A stretch of 64,000 bases of DNA from NCBI GenBank assembly GCA_030648055.1, contig JAUSHI010000009.1:112769-176768 (forward strand), read 5' to 3'. Position 1 is the first letter of the stretch. The number at the start of each line of letters is the position of its first letter. The notes beneath the pieces were generated by a model. The model had not been told where the DNA came from. It saw nothing but the letters and a program-made list of their open reading frames with translations, and did no database searches. Below are positions 3,015 through 41,510 of this stretch, piece after piece. A program made the translations under genes and the position numbers. Source of the stretch: a bacterium. GTDB lineage: Bacteria > Patescibacteriota > Minisyncoccia > Sungbacterales > SURF-37.

Positions 3015-3698
3015 TTTTCCGCTTCGTCTTGTGTGCACAGGGTATACCATATGTCTTTGTTCGTAGATGTGGTGAATCCAGTTAATGAATCCCTCCAGAC
3101 CCTTGAGGTTGTGCATAATTTTGTCTGGTTCTGCGTTGGCCAAGCGCGTGTATGAGCAGAATCCGCGGGCCGAGCCCACCACATAACAGCCGATTTCCCG
3201 CGCTAGTTTGAGGATCTCATCCATGTCATCCACGAATACCAGTTCATCCGCGGTAATTCCTTTCTCAATTATTACATCCGCGAGGGATTGGATTTTATCG
3301 GGGACTGATACTCCGCCTTTTACATTAGTAATCATTCCATCAAGACCGTAGAGCTTAAGAACTCTTTCAATGTCTTTTTTCGGGTGGCCGCTCACTACGC
3401 GTGTTTCAATTCCGCGGTGTGAGAGCCAGCGGAGTGTGTCATGCACATCCGGAAAAAGATTCGGCCGCGGTTCTTTCCGGGTTAAGGCAATAAACCGCCG
3501 AGTGGCTTCCTCGGTGTTTTTAATGGCGTACTGCAAAAAAAATTCTTTGTTGGTGGTTTTTGCGCTTTCGCGGAATTCCCAGAGCGTCACCGGCTCTTTG
3601 CCGTAGTGCGCGAGTACCGTGTTGAAGTGCTGCACATAAATTTCCGCGCTGTTGCAGAGCACCCCGTCCCAGTCAAAGACGACCACTTTGGTTTTCAC
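3012..3698 (-). CDS. HAD-superfamily hydrolase (phosphatase-like)
   Basis: Motif I VVFDWDGVL at the N-terminus. Later SGHPK and VFVDD motifs typical of HAD phosphatases. Confidence 0.8.
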   Translation of the reverse strand: MKTKVVVFDWDGVLCNSAEIYVQHFNTVLAHYGKEPVTLWEFRESAKTTNKEFFLQYAIKNTEEATRRFIALTRKEPRPNLFPDVHDTLRWLSHRGIETRVVSGHPKKDIERVLKLYGLDGMITNVKGGVSVPDKIQSLADVIIEKGITADELVFVDDMDEILKLAREIGCYVVGSARGFCSYTRLANAEPDKIMHNLKGLEGFINWIHHIYEQRHMVYPVHTRRSGK

Positions 3699-6896: not shown

Positions 6897-6969
6897 ATTA
6901 TGGGTTGGGAGAATCGGACTCCCGCTACAAGACCCCCAGCCTTGAGTACTACCATTATACTACACCCCG
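6897..6969 (-). tRNA. tRNA-Pro(GGG)-like gene with a mismatched acceptor 3' strand (possible pseudogene)
   Basis: Minus strand reads CGGGGTG-TA-GTAT-AATGGTA-GTAC-T-CAAGG-CTGGGGG-TCTTG-TAGC-GGGAG-TCCGATT-CTCCC-AACCCAT. D, anticodon and T arms are good, but only 4 of 7 acceptor pairs form. Confidence 0.5.
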
Positions 6970-7248: not shown

Positions 7249-7905
7249 ATGGAATCCGCAATAACTTTTATTTTTTATCTCGCCATTCTTATTTTTTCGG
7301 TAGTGATACACGAAGTGTCCCACGGTATCGCGGCCTATGCTCTGGGAGATTCTACGGCAAAATACGCCGGGCGTCTTACGCTAAACCCTATTCCGCATAT
7401 TGATATTTTTGGCTCAATTATTCTTCCGCTGGTTCTCGCTATACCTGCCGTGTTTGGAGCGCCGACGATAATTTTTGGCTGGGCAAAACCGGTGCCGTAT
7501 AATCCGCATAACTTAAAAAATCAGCAATGGGGGCCGGCGTTGGTGGGTGCCGCCGGACCGGGAGCAAATATTATTCTTGCTTCAATTTTTGGGTTGGCCA
7601 TACGGCTTTTGCCGGGGTTAGGTTTTTTGCCAGCAGGTTTTGTTGCCAACTTTGTCTCAACTCTGGCAATAATTGTTTTATTGAATTTGAGTCTCGCGAT
7701 ATTCAATCTTGTGCCGATTCCTCCGCTTGACGGCTCAAAAGTGCTTTTTTCTTTGTTACCCCACTATTTGTTTTATATTCGTGATTTTTTGGAGCGGAAC
7801 GGTCTTTTTATACTTCTTATTTTTATTTTCTTTTTTTCGCGCCTTCTTTTTCCGGTTGTGCTTTTCTTTTTTCAGCTTTTTACGGGGCAGAGCATTTCTG
7901 TTTAA
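7249..7905 (+). CDS. Site-2 protease family (M50) membrane metalloprotease
   Basis: HEVSH zinc motif, NLVPIPPLDGSKV motif, multi-TM. Confidence 0.8.
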   Translation: MESAITFIFYLAILIFSVVIHEVSHGIAAYALGDSTAKYAGRLTLNPIPHIDIFGSIILPLVLAIPAVFGAPTIIFGWAKPVPYNPHNLKNQQWGPALVGAAGPGANIILASIFGLAIRLLPGLGFLPAGFVANFVSTLAIIVLLNLSLAIFNLVPIPPLDGSKVLFSLLPHYLFYIRDFLERNGLFILLIFIFFFSRLLFPVVLFFFQLFTGQSISV

Positions 7906-8010
7906 GAAAGGTATCGTATTTATTTTTTAGGCGGGCTAACTCGCCACGATGTTAGGTATGTTAATAATTTTTAGCGTTTAATTTACTGTTTTTTTATTGC
8001 GTAACAAAAG

Positions 8011-8047
8011 TTTATCCAAATAAAACCCATCGGCTGTATTTGGATAT
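8011..8047 (+). repeat. Family H hairpin repeat, copy H1
   Basis: tttATCCAAATAaaacccatcggctgTATTTGGATat. A 37-nt copy with 2 mismatches occurs at 41474..41510. Confidence 0.6.
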
Positions 8048-8122
8048 GGGGCATGGAGATGCATAAAGTTGCGTAGTGTTACGCTTACTTGTTGAATTTG
8101 CGTTTTTGACTCCGTTCTCTAA

Positions 8123-8375
8123 TCAATAGCTTTGCAACACTTCGGTCGGCGTTTTGAAGTTTAACTCCAGGTGAGGGCGCTTGATATTGTAATAATGCAG
8201 ATATTCAAGAATTTCTTTGCGATAGCTCTTTAGGCTCCGGGAAATCCGCGGCAGATATCCATTCTATATTGTGCGGTTTAATCTCTCCGGGTGGGGATTC
8301 ATTGTGTATGCCATATCCGTATTTTTACCCCAAGGGTCATTCCATGCTGTTGAACTAGAACGGCGGCTTGTTTTT
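8123..8375 (-). pseudogene. Decayed C-terminal fragment of a DDE (rve-type) transposase
   Basis: Minus-strand translation gives ..LGVKIRIWHTQ*, a frameshift, then ..NPHPERLNRTI*NGYLPRISRSLKSYRKEILEYLHYYNIKRPHLELNFKTPTEVLQSY*. The YYNxxRPH tail is present; the N-terminal part is absent. Confidence 0.65.
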
Positions 8376-8472
8376 TTTAAGTACTGTGGTACAATAATAC
8401 CATAGATCTTTTTCAAAAACGGGCCTTCGCCAGCCCAGAGTAGTGCACGTTTTACAAGGAGAGGAGGTAGAG

Positions 8473-9012
8473 ATGTTCAAGCAGTGGACCAATTTTTCTT
8501 TGACCACAGTGATGATGCTCGTCATCGCCGTCGTGGCAACCGGGTGCGCCACGGTGGGCAAAACCATCGATGCTGGAACGATCGTGGCCCCGGACGGCAA
8601 CCTCCGCTGGACTCACGGAAGCGTGGTCCAGATGGAGGGCACCCAGATCGTGCGTAGCACGACTGAGTCGTGCGATCCTGCCACGGATGCGGCGGGGAAC
8701 ATCATCCCCAACAAGTGGACAAACTGCAGACCGCAGGACCACGCGGCAAGCGTTGCCTCCGGGGTGGACGACAGCCCTGGTATCAAAGCAACGAAAGCCG
8801 CTGTCGAGATCGGCAAAGCCGCGGCCCTCGCCGGTGGCATGGTCGGGGCAGCGGCAGTCCAGCGCCCAGCTAAGACCAATGTAACCCAGACCCAGACCGG
8901 AGCTTCGGCAACCGGTGGGTCTGCCACCAACACGAACACCAGTACCAACAAAAACTGCGCCCAGTCTACGGGTGCGGCTGGCAACAATGCCAGTCCCACG
9001 AACTGCCCTTAG
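8473..9012 (+). CDS. Lipoprotein, Ala/Gly/Thr-rich, in a GC-rich islet
   Basis: ATG 8473 follows GGAGAGGAGG. Signal peptide plus lipobox (VVATGC). The local sequence supports long ORFs in many frames, which is a high-GC signature. Confidence 0.6.
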   Translation: MFKQWTNFSLTTVMMLVIAVVATGCATVGKTIDAGTIVAPDGNLRWTHGSVVQMEGTQIVRSTTESCDPATDAAGNIIPNKWTNCRPQDHAASVASGVDDSPGIKATKAAVEIGKAAALAGGMVGAAAVQRPAKTNVTQTQTGASATGGSATNTNTSTNKNCAQSTGAAGNNASPTNCP

Positions 9013-9070
9013 GCAAGATGGGACTCTCCTTGCGGCTCCCTTGAGCCGCGAGGAGAACACCAAAAAGTAA

Positions 9071-9097
9071 CACGATCCAACGGGTCGTGCTTTTTTT
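9071..9097 (+). terminator. Rho-independent terminator
   Basis: CACGATCC-aac-GGGTCGTG followed by C and TTTTTTT. Confidence 0.6.
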
Positions 9098-9202
9098 AGA
9101 CACCCTTAAATGCTGTATTACAGAAACATGTTATCTCCCTTGAAAAAAAAGATTAATTGTGGTATGGGTGAAATAGTGTTGTTCGTTCACAATGAGGGAA
9201 AG

Positions 9203-10210
9203 ATGGCGAAGATTGTTATTGATACAAAAAAATGTATTGCGCTTACGGAACACATAAAAGAGTTTGGCGGCGTGCCTCCGGATGTGGAGGACCCGCTTCC
9301 ATACGCGTTTCCTGGGCATGTGGCGCATAACGGCTGGTGGGCGATGGTTGCCATCAATCAGCAGACCACACCCGTGGTCGGACAGGCGCTCAAAGGATTT
9401 GTAAAAGGGAGGCCGCTTCGCGGCTGGGACTATCTATTGCAGAAAGCGATCTACGAGACGACGCGACAAAGCGATATGTTTACCCGTGAGTGGCTTTGTG
9501 GTATTACGCCGGAGTGTTTGAAAGAGCTTTATTACGATGATGTAGAGGGCGACACGCTTTCTCAAGTGGAAGTTCGCGCCTCACTTCTTCAGGACCTCGG
9601 GCGTTTCCTTGAGCGTCACAATTGGACTTCAGTGCATGAGGCCTATCTCGCGTCCGAAGGATATATTCTGCGAAGCGACGGCAATGGCCTCGCGCAGATT
9701 CTTGCCGAGACTAAGGCTTATCAAGACCCGGTGCAGAAGAAACTTTTTTATCTTCTCGCTATTATGCGGAATCAAAAGTTTTGGGAGTACGTTGACAGCA
9801 TTTATCTTTCCTCGCCGGTTAACTACCATGAACAGCGTTTGCATCTGCGGCTTGGAACAGTACGTCTGCTTGATGCCTCGCTTGAGCGGAAGATTCGGGC
9901 GCGAGAAAACATTACCGACCAGGAAGATATTGAAATCCGTTTTGCTGTCAGAAAAGCCATTGAGTTCATAGCCCAGCTTCTTGATGTCACGCCGTCCATG
10001 ATGCATTACTTTCTTTGGAACCACGCCAGAAATTGTTGTAGCAGAGACAATCCGCATTGTGAAGGATGCGGAACGGACTGCAAGTTGCCGGAACGTTACC
10101 GTCTTGCGCCGTATCATAATTGCATTTTCAGACAAGTATGCCCCAGTGCGGGGGATCCGCCCTCATCCATGTTTATTGAGCCGCGAGTTGATACCACTAT
10201 TTGGCAATAA
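9203..10210 (+). CDS. HhH-GPD/AGOG/Qng1(DUF2419)-like N-glycosidase-like protein with a C-terminal Cys cluster, paralogue 1
   Basis: PVNYHEQRLHLRLGTV..EDIEIRFAVRKAIEFI resembles the DUF2419/AGOG pattern. C-terminal CSRDNPHCEGCGTDC..NCIFRQVC gives C-x6-C-x2-C. ATG 9203 has a GAGGGAAAG RBS. Confidence 0.5.
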   Translation: MAKIVIDTKKCIALTEHIKEFGGVPPDVEDPLPYAFPGHVAHNGWWAMVAINQQTTPVVGQALKGFVKGRPLRGWDYLLQKAIYETTRQSDMFTREWLCGITPECLKELYYDDVEGDTLSQVEVRASLLQDLGRFLERHNWTSVHEAYLASEGYILRSDGNGLAQILAETKAYQDPVQKKLFYLLAIMRNQKFWEYVDSIYLSSPVNYHEQRLHLRLGTVRLLDASLERKIRARENITDQEDIEIRFAVRKAIEFIAQLLDVTPSMMHYFLWNHARNCCSRDNPHCEGCGTDCKLPERYRLAPYHNCIFRQVCPSAGDPPSSMFIEPRVDTTIWQ

Positions 10211-10246: not shown

Positions 10247-10478
10247 ATCGCTCACAACCAAGCTCATTATTCTTAAATTACGTTTTAACTGGCTATAGCT
10301 TACTAAAACATGTTATTTGCAATAGCCACTGAATATTAAAAAACGTTATGGAAACCCAAGGATCGGATACGCGACAAAAAACCATTGAACCATTACCCGT
10401 CTTAATTGCTTCACCGAGGTTTCTGTGATAAGAAATAGTAATGTTCGTTTACATAGTAGAGAAAGGAGTTTTTGGCAT

Positions 10479-11504
10479 ATGGTGGCCCTTGATCATGTAC
10501 GGTGTCGCGCGCTCGGTAAATTCTTCAAAGAACTTCGGTTTCCGGAGGCGGCCAAAATTGATCCGCCGGGAGATCTGTCGGGGCCAGACCTTCGCATGCT
10601 TTATTTTATTGTGGTGGCGATTTGCCATCAGACGAGTCCTATTGGCAAGCCGCGGCTTGCGGGCATGGTCAATGGGCGGCTTCTTTTCGGATGGGACTAC
10701 TTGTGTGCCTCCTGGTTAGCTGCGGCAAAAGCCGACCCATCAATTCTTACTCCCGGGTGGCTGATGTTTACCCAAGCAAGCGATATCATCTATCTGCTTT
10801 ATGATAGTCACCGGCATTGTGGGTCGCATATTACAGATTCCGAGGGGCGGGCCAAGCTTCTGCGCGATATCGGATTTCGGATGTACTGCGACGGGGTTGG
10901 GCACATTGATGAATATTACAAAAAGGCCGATGGGTACCTTTTGGACGTTTGGTTTAGCCCCAGTGTCCATACGCCAGGGCTTGAATCGTTGTTCTCTAAG
11001 TTTGAAGCCTACGGAAAAGACCCGGTAAAGAAGAAGCTAACTTATTTTCTTACTTTGATGAATCGCTACGGCTTTTGGCGGTATCGTGATATTCATCATC
11101 TTGGTGTTCCGGTTGATTATCACGAGGTGCGTTTGCATTTGCGCCTTGGGACGGTCAAAATTACGGATACGGCGCTTGCAGCAAAAGTTGCGGCATGTAC
11201 GGTGCTGAATGCCGAGGAAGATGTTTGTATCCGTAGCGCGACCCATCGGGCAATTGTTGAAATCTCCGAGTTTTCAGGACGAATGCCGGCAGACATTCAT
11301 AATTTCTTTTGGAACATGGCGCGGAATTGTTGTATGAGAGATAAAACACATTGCGCGGAGTGCGGAAGCCACAGCGCGCTTCCGGAACGTTACGCGGGAT
11401 TGCTTGCCGAAGGGCGATGTGTCTTTGCTAACCATTGTGCGAGCGTTTCGTTGGCGCACTCTGAAAAACCGAAAGAGCCTGTTGTTGATACCGATTTTTA
11501 TTAA
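10479..11504 (+). CDS. HhH-GPD/AGOG/Qng1-like N-glycosidase-like protein with a Cys cluster, paralogue 2
   Basis: Collinear with 9203..10210: PVDYHEVRLHLRLGTV, FFWNMARNCCMRDKTHCAECG..RCVFANHC. ATG 10479 follows AAAGGAG. Confidence 0.5.
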   Translation: MVALDHVRCRALGKFFKELRFPEAAKIDPPGDLSGPDLRMLYFIVVAICHQTSPIGKPRLAGMVNGRLLFGWDYLCASWLAAAKADPSILTPGWLMFTQASDIIYLLYDSHRHCGSHITDSEGRAKLLRDIGFRMYCDGVGHIDEYYKKADGYLLDVWFSPSVHTPGLESLFSKFEAYGKDPVKKKLTYFLTLMNRYGFWRYRDIHHLGVPVDYHEVRLHLRLGTVKITDTALAAKVAACTVLNAEEDVCIRSATHRAIVEISEFSGRMPADIHNFFWNMARNCCMRDKTHCAECGSHSALPERYAGLLAEGRCVFANHCASVSLAHSEKPKEPVVDTDFY

Positions 11505-35989: not shown

Positions 35990-36496
35990 TTGTTCTTTGT
36001 TTCTATAAGCCGAATCCTGTCCTCTGCCTTACGGCAAAGGGGTGATTATCTGTCTAGGCCCGGAATTGCTTCGCGGGCTCAAGCGGGTATTCCCTATAAA
36101 AAATACTTGGGATCCCCTTGCACCAGGTAGGAGTTTTTCTTATCCCGCCAGTCGCCTGCCGGAACTGTGGGCTCTTACCCCACTCTTTTCACCTTTGACC
36201 TCCTTCGCATTGAAAACCTTTAGAGTTTTCGTAACGACGATCGGTAGTATTGTCTCTGTGACACTGTCCCGTTCTCCCTCCCCAATTTTGCACCCGAGTT
36301 ATTCAGTCGAATCAATCGCGATAAGCAAAATCATTCTTTACTGTCTATTTATCTCTGATGCAAAACTGGAGAGGGATATGGTGGCTGTTAGCCACTACCA
36401 CTTTTTTCCAGCTTAACGCTGGAAGGTGTTCGGACTTTCCTCACCAAGCACATAAAAAGTTATGTGCTTGGCGCAATCACCCGAAACAAAGAACAA
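35990..36496 (-). ncRNA. rnpB: RNase P RNA (bacterial type), unusually long at ~507 nt
   Basis: Minus strand carries GAGGAAAGTCCGAAC (CR-I/P4) and GACAGGATTCGGCTTATAG (CR-V/P4). P1 is TTGTTCTTTGTTTC/GAAACAAAGAACAA. Its own TTGCTT-17-TATACT promoter lies just upstream. Confidence 0.85.
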
Positions 36497-41473: not shown

Positions 41474-41510
41474 TTTATCCAAATAAAACCTATCGGCCGT
41501 ATTTGGATAT
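41474..41510 (+). repeat. Family H hairpin repeat, copy H2
   Basis: tttATCCAAATAaaacctatcggccgTATTTGGATat matches H1 (8011..8047) at 35 of 37 positions. Confidence 0.6.

Follow-up and report, generated by a model that had tools for sequence, protein, structure and literature searches.

A GC-rich gene for a predicted lipoprotein as a probable displaced member of a family from type IV pilus loci of groundwater Parcubacteria

Hypervariable surface loci that are exchanged between strains, such as Pseudomonas pilA with its accessory-gene alleles and the capsule and O-antigen loci, are typically lower in G+C content (GC) than the genomes in which they lie. Pilus machinery also has a lipoprotein of its own, PilP (PF04351), which belongs to the pilMNOPQ alignment subcomplex and whose gene follows pilO. 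A surface lipoprotein system of raised GC is found in Borrelia, where the vls cassettes average 49.1% GC against about 28.6% for the chromosome (PMC11499132), and GC-biased gene conversion has been described for bacterial genes that recombine at a high rate (Lassalle et al. 2015, PMC4450053). Candidate phyla radiation (CPR) bacteria are believed to rely on their type IV pili and surface proteins for attachment to their hosts, and the variation of their surfaces is almost uncharted. Here we describe a GC-rich gene for a predicted lipoprotein of 179 residues, at 8473..9012 on the plus strand of a 64,000-nucleotide stretch of a Sungbacterales genome (GCA_030648055.1, contig JAUSHI010000009.1), the whole of which we refer to as the window. 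Comparison with its relatives leads us to propose, with moderate confidence in the account as a whole, that the window copy is a displaced member of a family at home in type IV pilus clusters, and that it has kept the 3' untranslated region (UTR) of that family and lost its native leader.

Analysis of the GC profile placed the 540-nt stretch of highest GC in the window at 8511-9050 (GC 0.635), against a window mean of 0.453 (standard deviation 0.034) and a second-highest 540-nt stretch of 0.546. The islet as a whole (8440-9100, GC 0.62-0.64) is the strongest peak in the 64 kb, and the lipoprotein open reading frame (ORF) has a GC of 0.617 and a GC at third codon positions (GC3) of 0.74, compared with 0.40-0.575 in 19 host genes. 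The same bias is seen in codon choice, with ATC for all eight Ile (host 22%), CAG for all eight Gln, and GTC or GTG for 87% of Val (host 38%). When the protein was re-encoded with host codons the expected GC3 was 0.541 (standard deviation 0.035, maximum 0.691 in 20000 draws), against 0.736 observed (z 5.5, 0 of 20000 simulations as high). The total GC under this re-encoding is 0.554, so that the Ala/Gly/Thr-rich protein accounts for roughly one half of the excess in GC and synonymous choice for the other. An earlier interpretation made from the letters and a list of ORFs (the sequence-only reading) had described the islet as far richer in GC than its surroundings and had proposed that codon usage be checked; the regional excess is borne out by the profile, and the anomaly extends to synonymous sites. 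The same interpretation had pointed to four overlapping ORFs as a feature occurring nowhere else in the window. These ORFs are present (8452..9063, minus strand, 203 residues; 8570..8884; 8613..8999; 8670..8873), but the claim of uniqueness was overstated, as the window contains over ten further antisense ORFs that reach 150 residues or more. Since permutation of the synonymous codons of the lipoprotein gene yields equally long stop-free runs in other frames, the extra ORFs simply follow from the high GC and are uninformative beyond it.

Under rules of the PROSITE PS51257 type, a lipoprotein precursor has a positively charged n-region, a hydrophobic h-region free of charged residues and a lipobox of the form [LVI..][ASTG..][GAS]-C whose Cys falls between positions 15 and 35. 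The signal sequence encoded here, MFKQWTNFSLTTVMMLVIAVVATG-C25, agrees with this rule: the signal peptide (8473-8544) has a Lys at position 3, a hydrophobic core and uncharged residues from 4 to 24, and its A-T-G-C lipobox ends in Cys25 (8545-8547). The lipobox Cys is invariant in the family, and Gly or Ala stands at position -1 in all members of both core types, A and B, that are described below. The rest of the product comprises a type A core with conserved Cys67 and Cys85, an Ala/Gly-rich helix (about 8776-8859) and a Thr/Gly/Ser/Asn-rich tail (8869-9009). A GGAGG ribosome-binding site at 8463..8467 lies 5 nt ahead of the ATG at 8473, and AGGAGG or GAGGAGG stands at the same place in all family members. 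The gene, ribosome-binding site, lipobox and Ala/Gly/Thr/Asn-rich tail named in the sequence-only reading can thus all be read in the DNA. Identity between the window gene and its relative on contig L001 is 0.72, 0.76 and 0.46 at codon positions 1, 2 and 3, and the ratio of nonsynonymous to synonymous divergence (dN/dS) is 0.24 for this pair and 0.24-0.6 against relatives. This codon periodicity and a dN/dS below 1, together with host-like syntenic flanks and the recurrence of the islet in ten contigs, show that the ORF is a real gene under purifying selection. The NCBI annotation (Q7R91_02495) gives it only 120 residues, starting at an internal GTG, and the signal peptide is lost; an exact look-up of that 120-residue product returned no record.

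Relatives were sought by a HMMER scan of 1.84 billion cluster representatives and two word-indexed searches of 5.8 billion proteins. The word-indexed search returned the window gene itself as the sole match, and the HMMER scan four relatives at 36-57% identity (P0002-P0005). P0007 came from a profile search, and the architecture of the window gene recurs in homologs that are 33-57% identical to it. All five relatives have the same build, with a signal peptide and lipobox Cys, a core of about 75 residues with two conserved Cys, an Ala/Gly helix (GGMVGAAAV) and a Thr/Gly/Ser-rich tail. The contigs L001-L005 come from Hainich aquifer well H51 and from Logan assemblies, and gene context revealed further members on contigs L086, L088, L097 and L098; these searches, though exhaustive, brought fewer than ten relatives to light, which makes the family a very rare one. 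The same type of islet is present in ten independent contigs, drawn from assemblies of ENA, Logan, JGI and NCBI. Scans for peptide patterns in JGI metagenomes and IMG/VR gave no family member, PHROGs and IMG/VR held no match to the family, and when the DNA of JGI metagenomes was scanned for the leader motif of the family, the six matches were chance ones, none followed by a GC-rich gene. Searches with the family against Pfam, NCBIfam, PHROGs and the sequences of the PDB found no meaningful relative, the only domain-search matches (Rv1280c and a Cor protein) being at the level of the signal peptide.

The position of the gene, which we call the slot, is identical in L001-L005, L086, L088, L097 and L098. 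The lipoprotein gene is divergent from pilM-pilN-pilO, and downstream of it, convergent, lie a gene for a pilus-associated protein of about 450-480 residues and then genes with prepilin-type N-termini (minor pilins). Because the named PilM relatives belong to Sungbacteria, Colwellbacteria and 'Parcubacteria group', the hosts of the family appear to be groundwater Parcubacteria, and the family, which is unannotated, has so far been seen only there as judged from these loci. No relevant literature was found on a CPR pilus-locus lipoprotein or on GC-rich CPR genes; the lipoproteins in PMC13194787 are those of the Actinomyces host. The sequence-only reading had held that its proposal of a foreign origin would fall if the closest homologues occurred only in related CPR genomes at the same locus. 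The homologs found are indeed confined to CPR-type DNA, which comes near to that condition, but they occupy another locus, the type IV pilus cluster.

The pilus-locus copies also share a promoter, TTGACT-N17-TATAAT, and a 5' leader of two hairpins (L001 690-805, L005 30-145, and in L086 and L088). Leader hairpin 1 shows a compensatory change from GCGGC...GCCGC to GTGGC...GCCAC and hairpin 2, GGCCGCGAGGCC, adjoins the ribosome-binding site; the leader may be regulatory or mRNA-stabilising. In L087, a Hainich relative whose PilM is 57% identical to that of L002, the slot is empty and a 634-residue upstream protein on the pilM strand ends 8 bp before pilM (3571-3579), so the lipoprotein slot is not universal in these pilus clusters. 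The slot gene of L088 (7037-7810; GCA_964412615.1, CAYPPK010000007.1) contains a run of N and an Arg/His-rich nonsense frame after about 95 codons, which points to faulty assembly of the GC-rich segment or to a frameshift within it; genes like this one may be systematically mis-assembled or mis-called.

Comparison of the slot genes revealed that the GC anomaly belongs to every member of the family. In L001-L005 the genes have a GC of 0.65-0.68 and a GC3 of 0.69-0.81, with flanks of 0.45-0.52, and across all loci the genes range from 0.63 to 0.68 in GC and from 0.68 to 0.85 in GC3, against flanks of 0.44-0.52. The slot of L086 (PilM 71% identical to L002) holds a gene for a 177-residue lipoprotein with a GC of 0.652 and a GC3 of 0.848 in a background of 0.452, the slot of L088 (PilM 53%) holds the damaged gene at 0.64 in a background of 0.442, and those of L097 and L098 hold partial genes at 0.64 and 0.63. 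GC3 exceeds the host-codon expectation by 7.1 standard deviations in L002 and by 9.9 in L086. When seven genes were pooled, GC3 was about 0.8 in every codon class, compared with 0.32, 0.44 and 0.62 in host genes, and was equally high in signal peptide, core and tail. Pooled family codons (AAG for 78% of Lys, ATC for 84% of Ile, CAG for 81% of Gln) follow the usage of a genome of about 65% GC. Codon bias driven by expression or translational selection was considered and ruled out by the GC3 of highly expressed window genes (L28, 0.40; S12, 0.46; S7, 0.49; EF-G, 0.48).

Synonymous sites between members are at the ceiling for their composition (proportion of synonymous differences, pS, 0.58-0.67; synonymous divergence, dS, at least 1), and PilM identity among the loci goes down to 50%. 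Because these sites are saturated and yet every member keeps its high GC3, while an old import would have ameliorated, the high GC is best read from these comparisons as a property that the transcription unit has maintained within CPR genomes, not as the mark of a recent donor. G-quadruplex (G4) motifs number 0 on either strand, and the GC skew is -0.04 to 0.07.

Close pairs of loci point to exchange of parts of the gene within the slot. Between L001 and L005, from the same well, the promoter and early leader are 97.1% identical, and the sequence from codon 138 or so through the tail, the 3' UTR and beyond is 98.6% identical, whereas the middle of about 470 nt (late leader, signal peptide and core) is 65.7% identical, with a dS of 0.65 and a dN/dS of 0.53. 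Between L097 and L002, identity in pilM is about 88% over the whole gene and reaches 93-97% in some stretches of 60 nt, the leader is 93% identical, and the signal-peptide codons agree at 51 of 54 positions (94%) up to the lipobox GCGGGGTGC. Past the Cys codon, identity falls to 46%, against 44% in shuffled controls, and L097 has a mature domain like that of L086, to which it is 37% identical (type B). In profile-profile comparison, types A and B are related only in the last 26 columns of the tail (94.6% probability). In most pairs of loci, divergence is much greater in the lipoproteins than in the neighbouring proteins (35% versus 85%, 31% versus 74% and 46% versus 68% identity). Because near-identical arms enclose diverged or unrelated middles, with a breakpoint at the lipobox Cys codon, unrelated and equally GC-rich mature-domain cassettes appear to have been swapped between conserved arms. 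The upstream arm would consist of promoter, leader and signal peptide, and the downstream arm of the Thr/Gly-rich tail and 3' UTR. Silent partial cassettes were not found in the 64-kb window, and L002, L086 and L088 (loci up to 17 kb) each have a single GC peak. For a diversity-generating retroelement, which pairs a reverse transcriptase with a template repeat nearly identical to the variable region, the called genes of L002, L086, L087 and L088 gave no reverse transcriptase-family Pfam match, and the window no second copy of the gene, most contigs being short for such a search. In the window copy the core is closest to that of L001 and the signal peptide and tail to those of L003, which suggests, on short segments of low complexity, that this copy may itself be a mosaic.

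The window copy lies outside any such cluster: a tblastn search with L002 proteins found no type IV pilus cluster in the window. Its surroundings were compared with those in L006 (CAZDKA010000018.1), the closest genome of the GTDB representative set, to which the window's own assembly does not belong. L006 is syntenic with the window (M50 peptidase 77% identical, the next gene 80%, S12, S7 and EF-G 80-85%). In L006 the M50 stop is at 932 and the downstream ortholog starts at 1100 or 1112, leaving a spacer of about 170-180 bp with a terminator hairpin only; the window spacer between the same genes, 7906-9202, measures 1297 bp. Because the syntenic spacer is so short, the block of about 1.1 kb is read as an insertion in the window lineage, a gain rather than a loss by parsimony and in view of the insertion sequence (IS) remnant it contains. 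Its approximate extent is 8017..9130, with boundaries that are fuzzy in poorly conserved intergenic DNA; short matches to L006, AAAGTTTAT (8008-8016) and CTCCCTTGAAAAA (9135-9147), bracket the extra DNA, and host-like syntenic DNA lies on both sides of the islet. The proposal in the sequence-only reading that the islet was horizontally acquired is upheld to this extent, the site being empty in the related genome. A 9-nt direct repeat, CTCCCTTGA, occurs at 9036-9044 and 9135-9143, around the terminator segment, and as a single copy in the L006 spacer, where CTTTGCCGCTCCCTTGA agrees with window positions 9028-9044 in 15 of 17 letters (blastn E 0.04, from a very small search space); the repeat could be microhomology at an integration junction, or chance.

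The lipoprotein gene carries its family's downstream sequence with it. The window 3' UTR is homologous to those of the pilus loci and consists of hairpin A (9025..9056), a ACACCAAAAAG linker and a terminator (9071..9097). Hairpin A has a GC-rich stem of 14 bp whose base, CTCCyCGC...GCGrGGAG, is conserved in L003, L004, L002 and L086 with some compensatory pairs. The intrinsic terminator, CACGATCC-AAC-GGGTCGTG followed by a T-run, was found by terminator scan and has homologs of the form ACACGAyCC...GGrTCGTG-TTTT in L002, L086, L001 and L005. Because of this homology, and of the drop in GC at this point, the family-derived segment is taken to extend to about 9097. The native two-hairpin leader is absent from the window copy. 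In its place we note a candidate extended -10 element, TGGTACAAT (8387..8395), which aligns with the TATAAT boxes of native family promoters; the consensus promoter scan did not list it, its -35 being poor.

Immediately upstream of the gene, on the minus strand, lies the decayed C-terminal part of an rve-type DDE transposase (8123..8330; IS3/IS481-like by Pfam rve_3, NCBIfam and tblastn). Its frame runs from 8401 to 8126 with a stop at 8123-8125 and reads ...PHPERLNRTI*NGYLPRISRSLKSYRKEILEYLHYYNIKRPHLELNFKTPTEVLQSY*, and the recognisable transposase part covers only about 8126-8330, at a host-like GC of 0.43. The remnant scores 31.2 bits against the Pfam rve_3 cutoff of 26.5, over profile positions 16-67 of 67. 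On the NCBIfam models it scores 31.9 bits (IS481) and 30.8 bits (IS3) over only the last 50 or so of 284 or 369 positions, far under the cutoffs of 224 and 160 bits expected of a complete transposase. Annotated IS3-family transposases match it by tblastn at 41% identity (E 7e-6). It shares with IS3 and IS481 the C-terminal rve_3 region and the ends of both NCBIfam models, but keeps only about 70 of some 300-370 codons, with an in-frame stop at 8264-8266, and has neither the catalytic core nor recognisable terminal inverted repeats, so the two families cannot be told apart here. No pair of inverted repeats was found bracketing the remnant, and the fetched CPR loci held no convincing intact relatives of the IS. 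The sequence-only reading had seen a decayed rve-type transposase with both a frameshift and a stop; the remnant and its stop stand, and the frameshift is not confirmed, one frame carrying the whole matched part with a gap of about 5 residues relative to a QTNGK consensus. We read it as the dead 3' stump of a transposase gene. About three-quarters of that gene, at its 5' end, are missing, and the lipoprotein unit stands where they would be; because of this position the unit would have truncated or replaced the IS rather than been carried in an intact one.

Several other accounts have to be weighed against that of a displaced family member. The sequence-only reading leads to an account in which the gene was recently transferred from a lineage of high GC (the host, perhaps), arrived with an IS that afterwards decayed, and still shows the un-ameliorated GC of its donor. 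A strong compositional anomaly with the codon usage of a genome of about 65% GC, an adjoining IS remnant and an empty site in L006 are what such a transfer would leave behind. However, neither the HMMER scan nor the word-indexed protein searches, which together took in about 15 billion proteins, found a homolog in a high-GC context. All relatives lie in CPR DNA of 44-52% GC, where the gene is an equally GC-rich islet each time, and a GC3 of 0.68-0.85 at saturated synonymous sites is not predicted by an un-ameliorated recent transfer. The remnant itself is CPR-like in GC, and with only the transposase 3' end left and the lipoprotein unit standing where the 5' part would be, the comparison supports neither a donor of high GC nor delivery by an intact IS. 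We consider this account highly improbable; the most likely source of the unit is a different CPR genome rather than a host of high GC. A related possibility is an unsampled GC-rich reservoir (a high-GC CPR lineage, phage or plasmid) from which cassettes would be repeatedly imported via the arms, each copy being young. Mosaics with sharp breakpoints and near-identical arms, two unrelated core types that are both GC-rich, a uniform GC3 of about 0.8 as in a GC-rich genome, and a window copy that shows the unit to be mobile would all fit such imports. Import through homologous arms would, however, require donors with the same pilus-locus flanks, that is, related CPR; GC-rich flanks were seen in 0 of 10 loci, IMG/VR and PHROGs gave no matches, and the resident arms, signal peptide and tail, match the exchanged cores in GC-richness. 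We judge a reservoir unlikely, though deserving of some weight.

The islet might also be a structured non-coding RNA or element with a fortuitous ORF, or its true gene might lie on the other strand, as GC-rich blocks in lower-GC genomes are often RNA genes and strong flanking hairpins and long ORFs in several frames occur here. Rfam 15 gave nothing relevant on the islet at E up to 10 or on the whole window at gathering scores (best match in 7800-9300, 21 bits against a threshold of 60, E 1.9-6.8), and the lipoprotein frame shows codon periodicity, a dN/dS below 1, and a signal peptide and Cys conserved in all members. The synonymous-permutation controls rule out an overlapping or antisense gene as the true one, the other-frame ORFs being no longer than such permutations give. 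We find this explanation barely credible, and give next to no credence to an assembly artefact, by which sequences would have been wrongly joined or a high-GC contaminant built into the contig of a metagenome-assembled genome. Such contigs can be chimeric and the islet is short, but syntenic host-like DNA lies on both sides and the same kind of islet occurs in independent contigs from four sources. Apart from the reservoir, other points weigh against the account that we prefer. Most family contigs are 1-2 kb long and of low coverage, and the identity of their hosts is read from flank GC and PilM similarity; the link to the pilus is one of gene neighbourhood only, and the window copy is away from pilus genes; L006 is the sole comparator, among 80 relatives fetched, that keeps the pair of M50 and next gene; and AlphaFold2, run on an alignment of six sequences, gave a poor model (mean predicted confidence, pLDDT, 47).

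Under the displaced-member account, the native home of the gene would be the fixed slot in the type IV pilus cluster, where it is some 20 percentage points richer in GC than the genome. A piece of another CPR genome, or of a different part of the same genome, could have landed in or beside an IS, so that a hairpin repeat described below, the IS remnant and the lipoprotein unit, about 1.1 kb together, came to lie in the spacer between M50 and the next gene; IS-linked or illegitimate recombination may have moved it. The mature product is modelled as a small, Cys-bridged, beta-rich domain followed by an Ala/Gly helix and an extended Thr/Ser/Gly tail, and the unreliable AlphaFold2 model agrees on secondary structure. 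It would be a lipid-anchored, pilus-associated and fast-varying surface protein, placed on the membrane's outer face and interacting or co-regulated with the pilus machinery, and its variation would reflect exposure to host cells or phages. We infer that its GC is upheld by a force specific to the gene, for which there are three candidates: GC-biased conversion associated with recombination, selection acting on the DNA for the sake of exchange itself, a case that has been made for Borrelia vls, or selection for a stable transcript that is poor in U and capped by hairpins. Groundwater Parcubacteria might even run recombination-based surface variation at the pilus locus, the mature part of the lipoprotein being swapped between the arms. 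GC-richness would then be required by the exchange or produced by it, in the way argued for vls or by very strong GC-biased gene conversion, and displaced full-length copies like that of the window would serve as archival or donor cassettes for an expression site at the pilus locus; we think this distinctly unlikely.

Other features lie around the islet and elsewhere in the window. The hairpin repeat, TTTATCCAAATAAAACCCATCGGCTGTATTTGGATAT (38 nt; 8011..8047, plus strand), was noted in the sequence-only reading and is confirmed by another occurrence, at 41474-41510, that differs from it at 2 positions; by chance, 0 such copies are expected. Neither difference breaks the stem (A-U to G-U in the minus-strand fold), and the copies share only about 38 nt, their flanks being unrelated. 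Both are plus-oriented and lie about 70-110 nt downstream of a plus-strand gene (the M50 peptidase and a pyridine-nucleotide-disulphide oxidoreductase, respectively), and the repeat is absent from all of the more than 85 fetched loci, L006 included. It could be an element like the repetitive extragenic palindromic (REP) sequences, or an IS target, and may belong to the insertion or be a small repeat independent of it. Downstream of the islet, an ORF of 366 residues is called from 9110, yet the L006 ortholog aligns only from MAKIVIDTKK; the true start is probably the ATG at 9203, which has GAGGGAAAG ahead of it. This gene (9203-10210) and the next (10425-11504) are tandem paralogs, about 35-38% identical, with a C-terminal Cys cluster, CC..D..HC..C(G/S).., and the pair is kept in L006. 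Pfam, NCBIfam and PDB sequence searches found no match for them, and they form an uncharacterised CPR protein family. The RNase P RNA gene (bacterial class A, 150.5 bits; 35990-36492, minus strand) measures 503 nt against a model of 367 positions, with insertions of about 135 nt, and tRNA-Pro(GGG) (6900-6969, minus strand) scores 35.4 bits on the Rfam tRNA model, with a threshold of 29, compared with 67.5 bits for a tRNA-Gly in the window.

Three traits set the family apart: a fixed pilus slot, cassette swaps between near-identical strains of one aquifer, and a GC3 near 0.8 in genomes with a GC3 of about 0.45. High GC3 at saturated sites would make it a compact natural test case for the long-standing question of whether biased gene conversion or selection keeps bacterial GC high in the face of mutation bias. 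It also carries a caution, as a compositional island beside an IS can be mistaken for a transfer from a foreign phylum when the anomaly is the family's own.

Among described systems, PilP is likewise a small lipoprotein (about 170-190 residues) encoded beside pilM, pilN and pilO. Identity with PilP was rejected, as five members gave no Pfam PilP match at E up to 0.1 and the gene is divergent from pilM in all loci; the slot protein is hypervariable where PilP is conserved, and no secretin partner was seen in the fetched loci. GC-biased gene conversion offers another likeness, a recombining gene whose GC3 is raised independently of expression-linked codon choice. In contrast to the genome-wide trends attributed to that process, which are reportedly much smaller than a GC3 of about 0.8 against about 0.45, the GC effect here is limited to one transcription unit with sharp edges. 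Like the hypervariable surface loci, the slot sets conserved neighbours (60-85% identical) beside divergent lipoproteins (31-47%) with unrelated type A and type B cores. Unlike them, it is far higher in GC than its genome, and its unit is one small gene, in which a breakpoint coincides with the codon for the lipobox Cys.

Comparison with Borrelia vlsE gives both likenesses and differences. The slot family and vlsE have no sequence or Pfam similarity, the GC skew of 0.52 in vls (PMC11499132) contrasts with a skew of about 0 here, where there are no G-runs or G4 motifs, and no silent-cassette array was seen in the 64-kb window or in loci up to 17 kb. The setting also differs, a telomeric plasmid in Borrelia and a type IV pilus cluster here. 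In both cases a surface lipoprotein gene, predicted as such here, has a variable part about 20 points richer in GC than its background (here about 64% against about 45%), and a central region is replaced between conserved flanks, here between strains only and not within a clone. Because the GC anomaly is kept across species in both, a maintaining force is implied for vls and the slot family alike. By these analogies, although it fails several features of vls, the slot family would function like the hypervariable surface loci and have in vls its nearest compositional counterpart.

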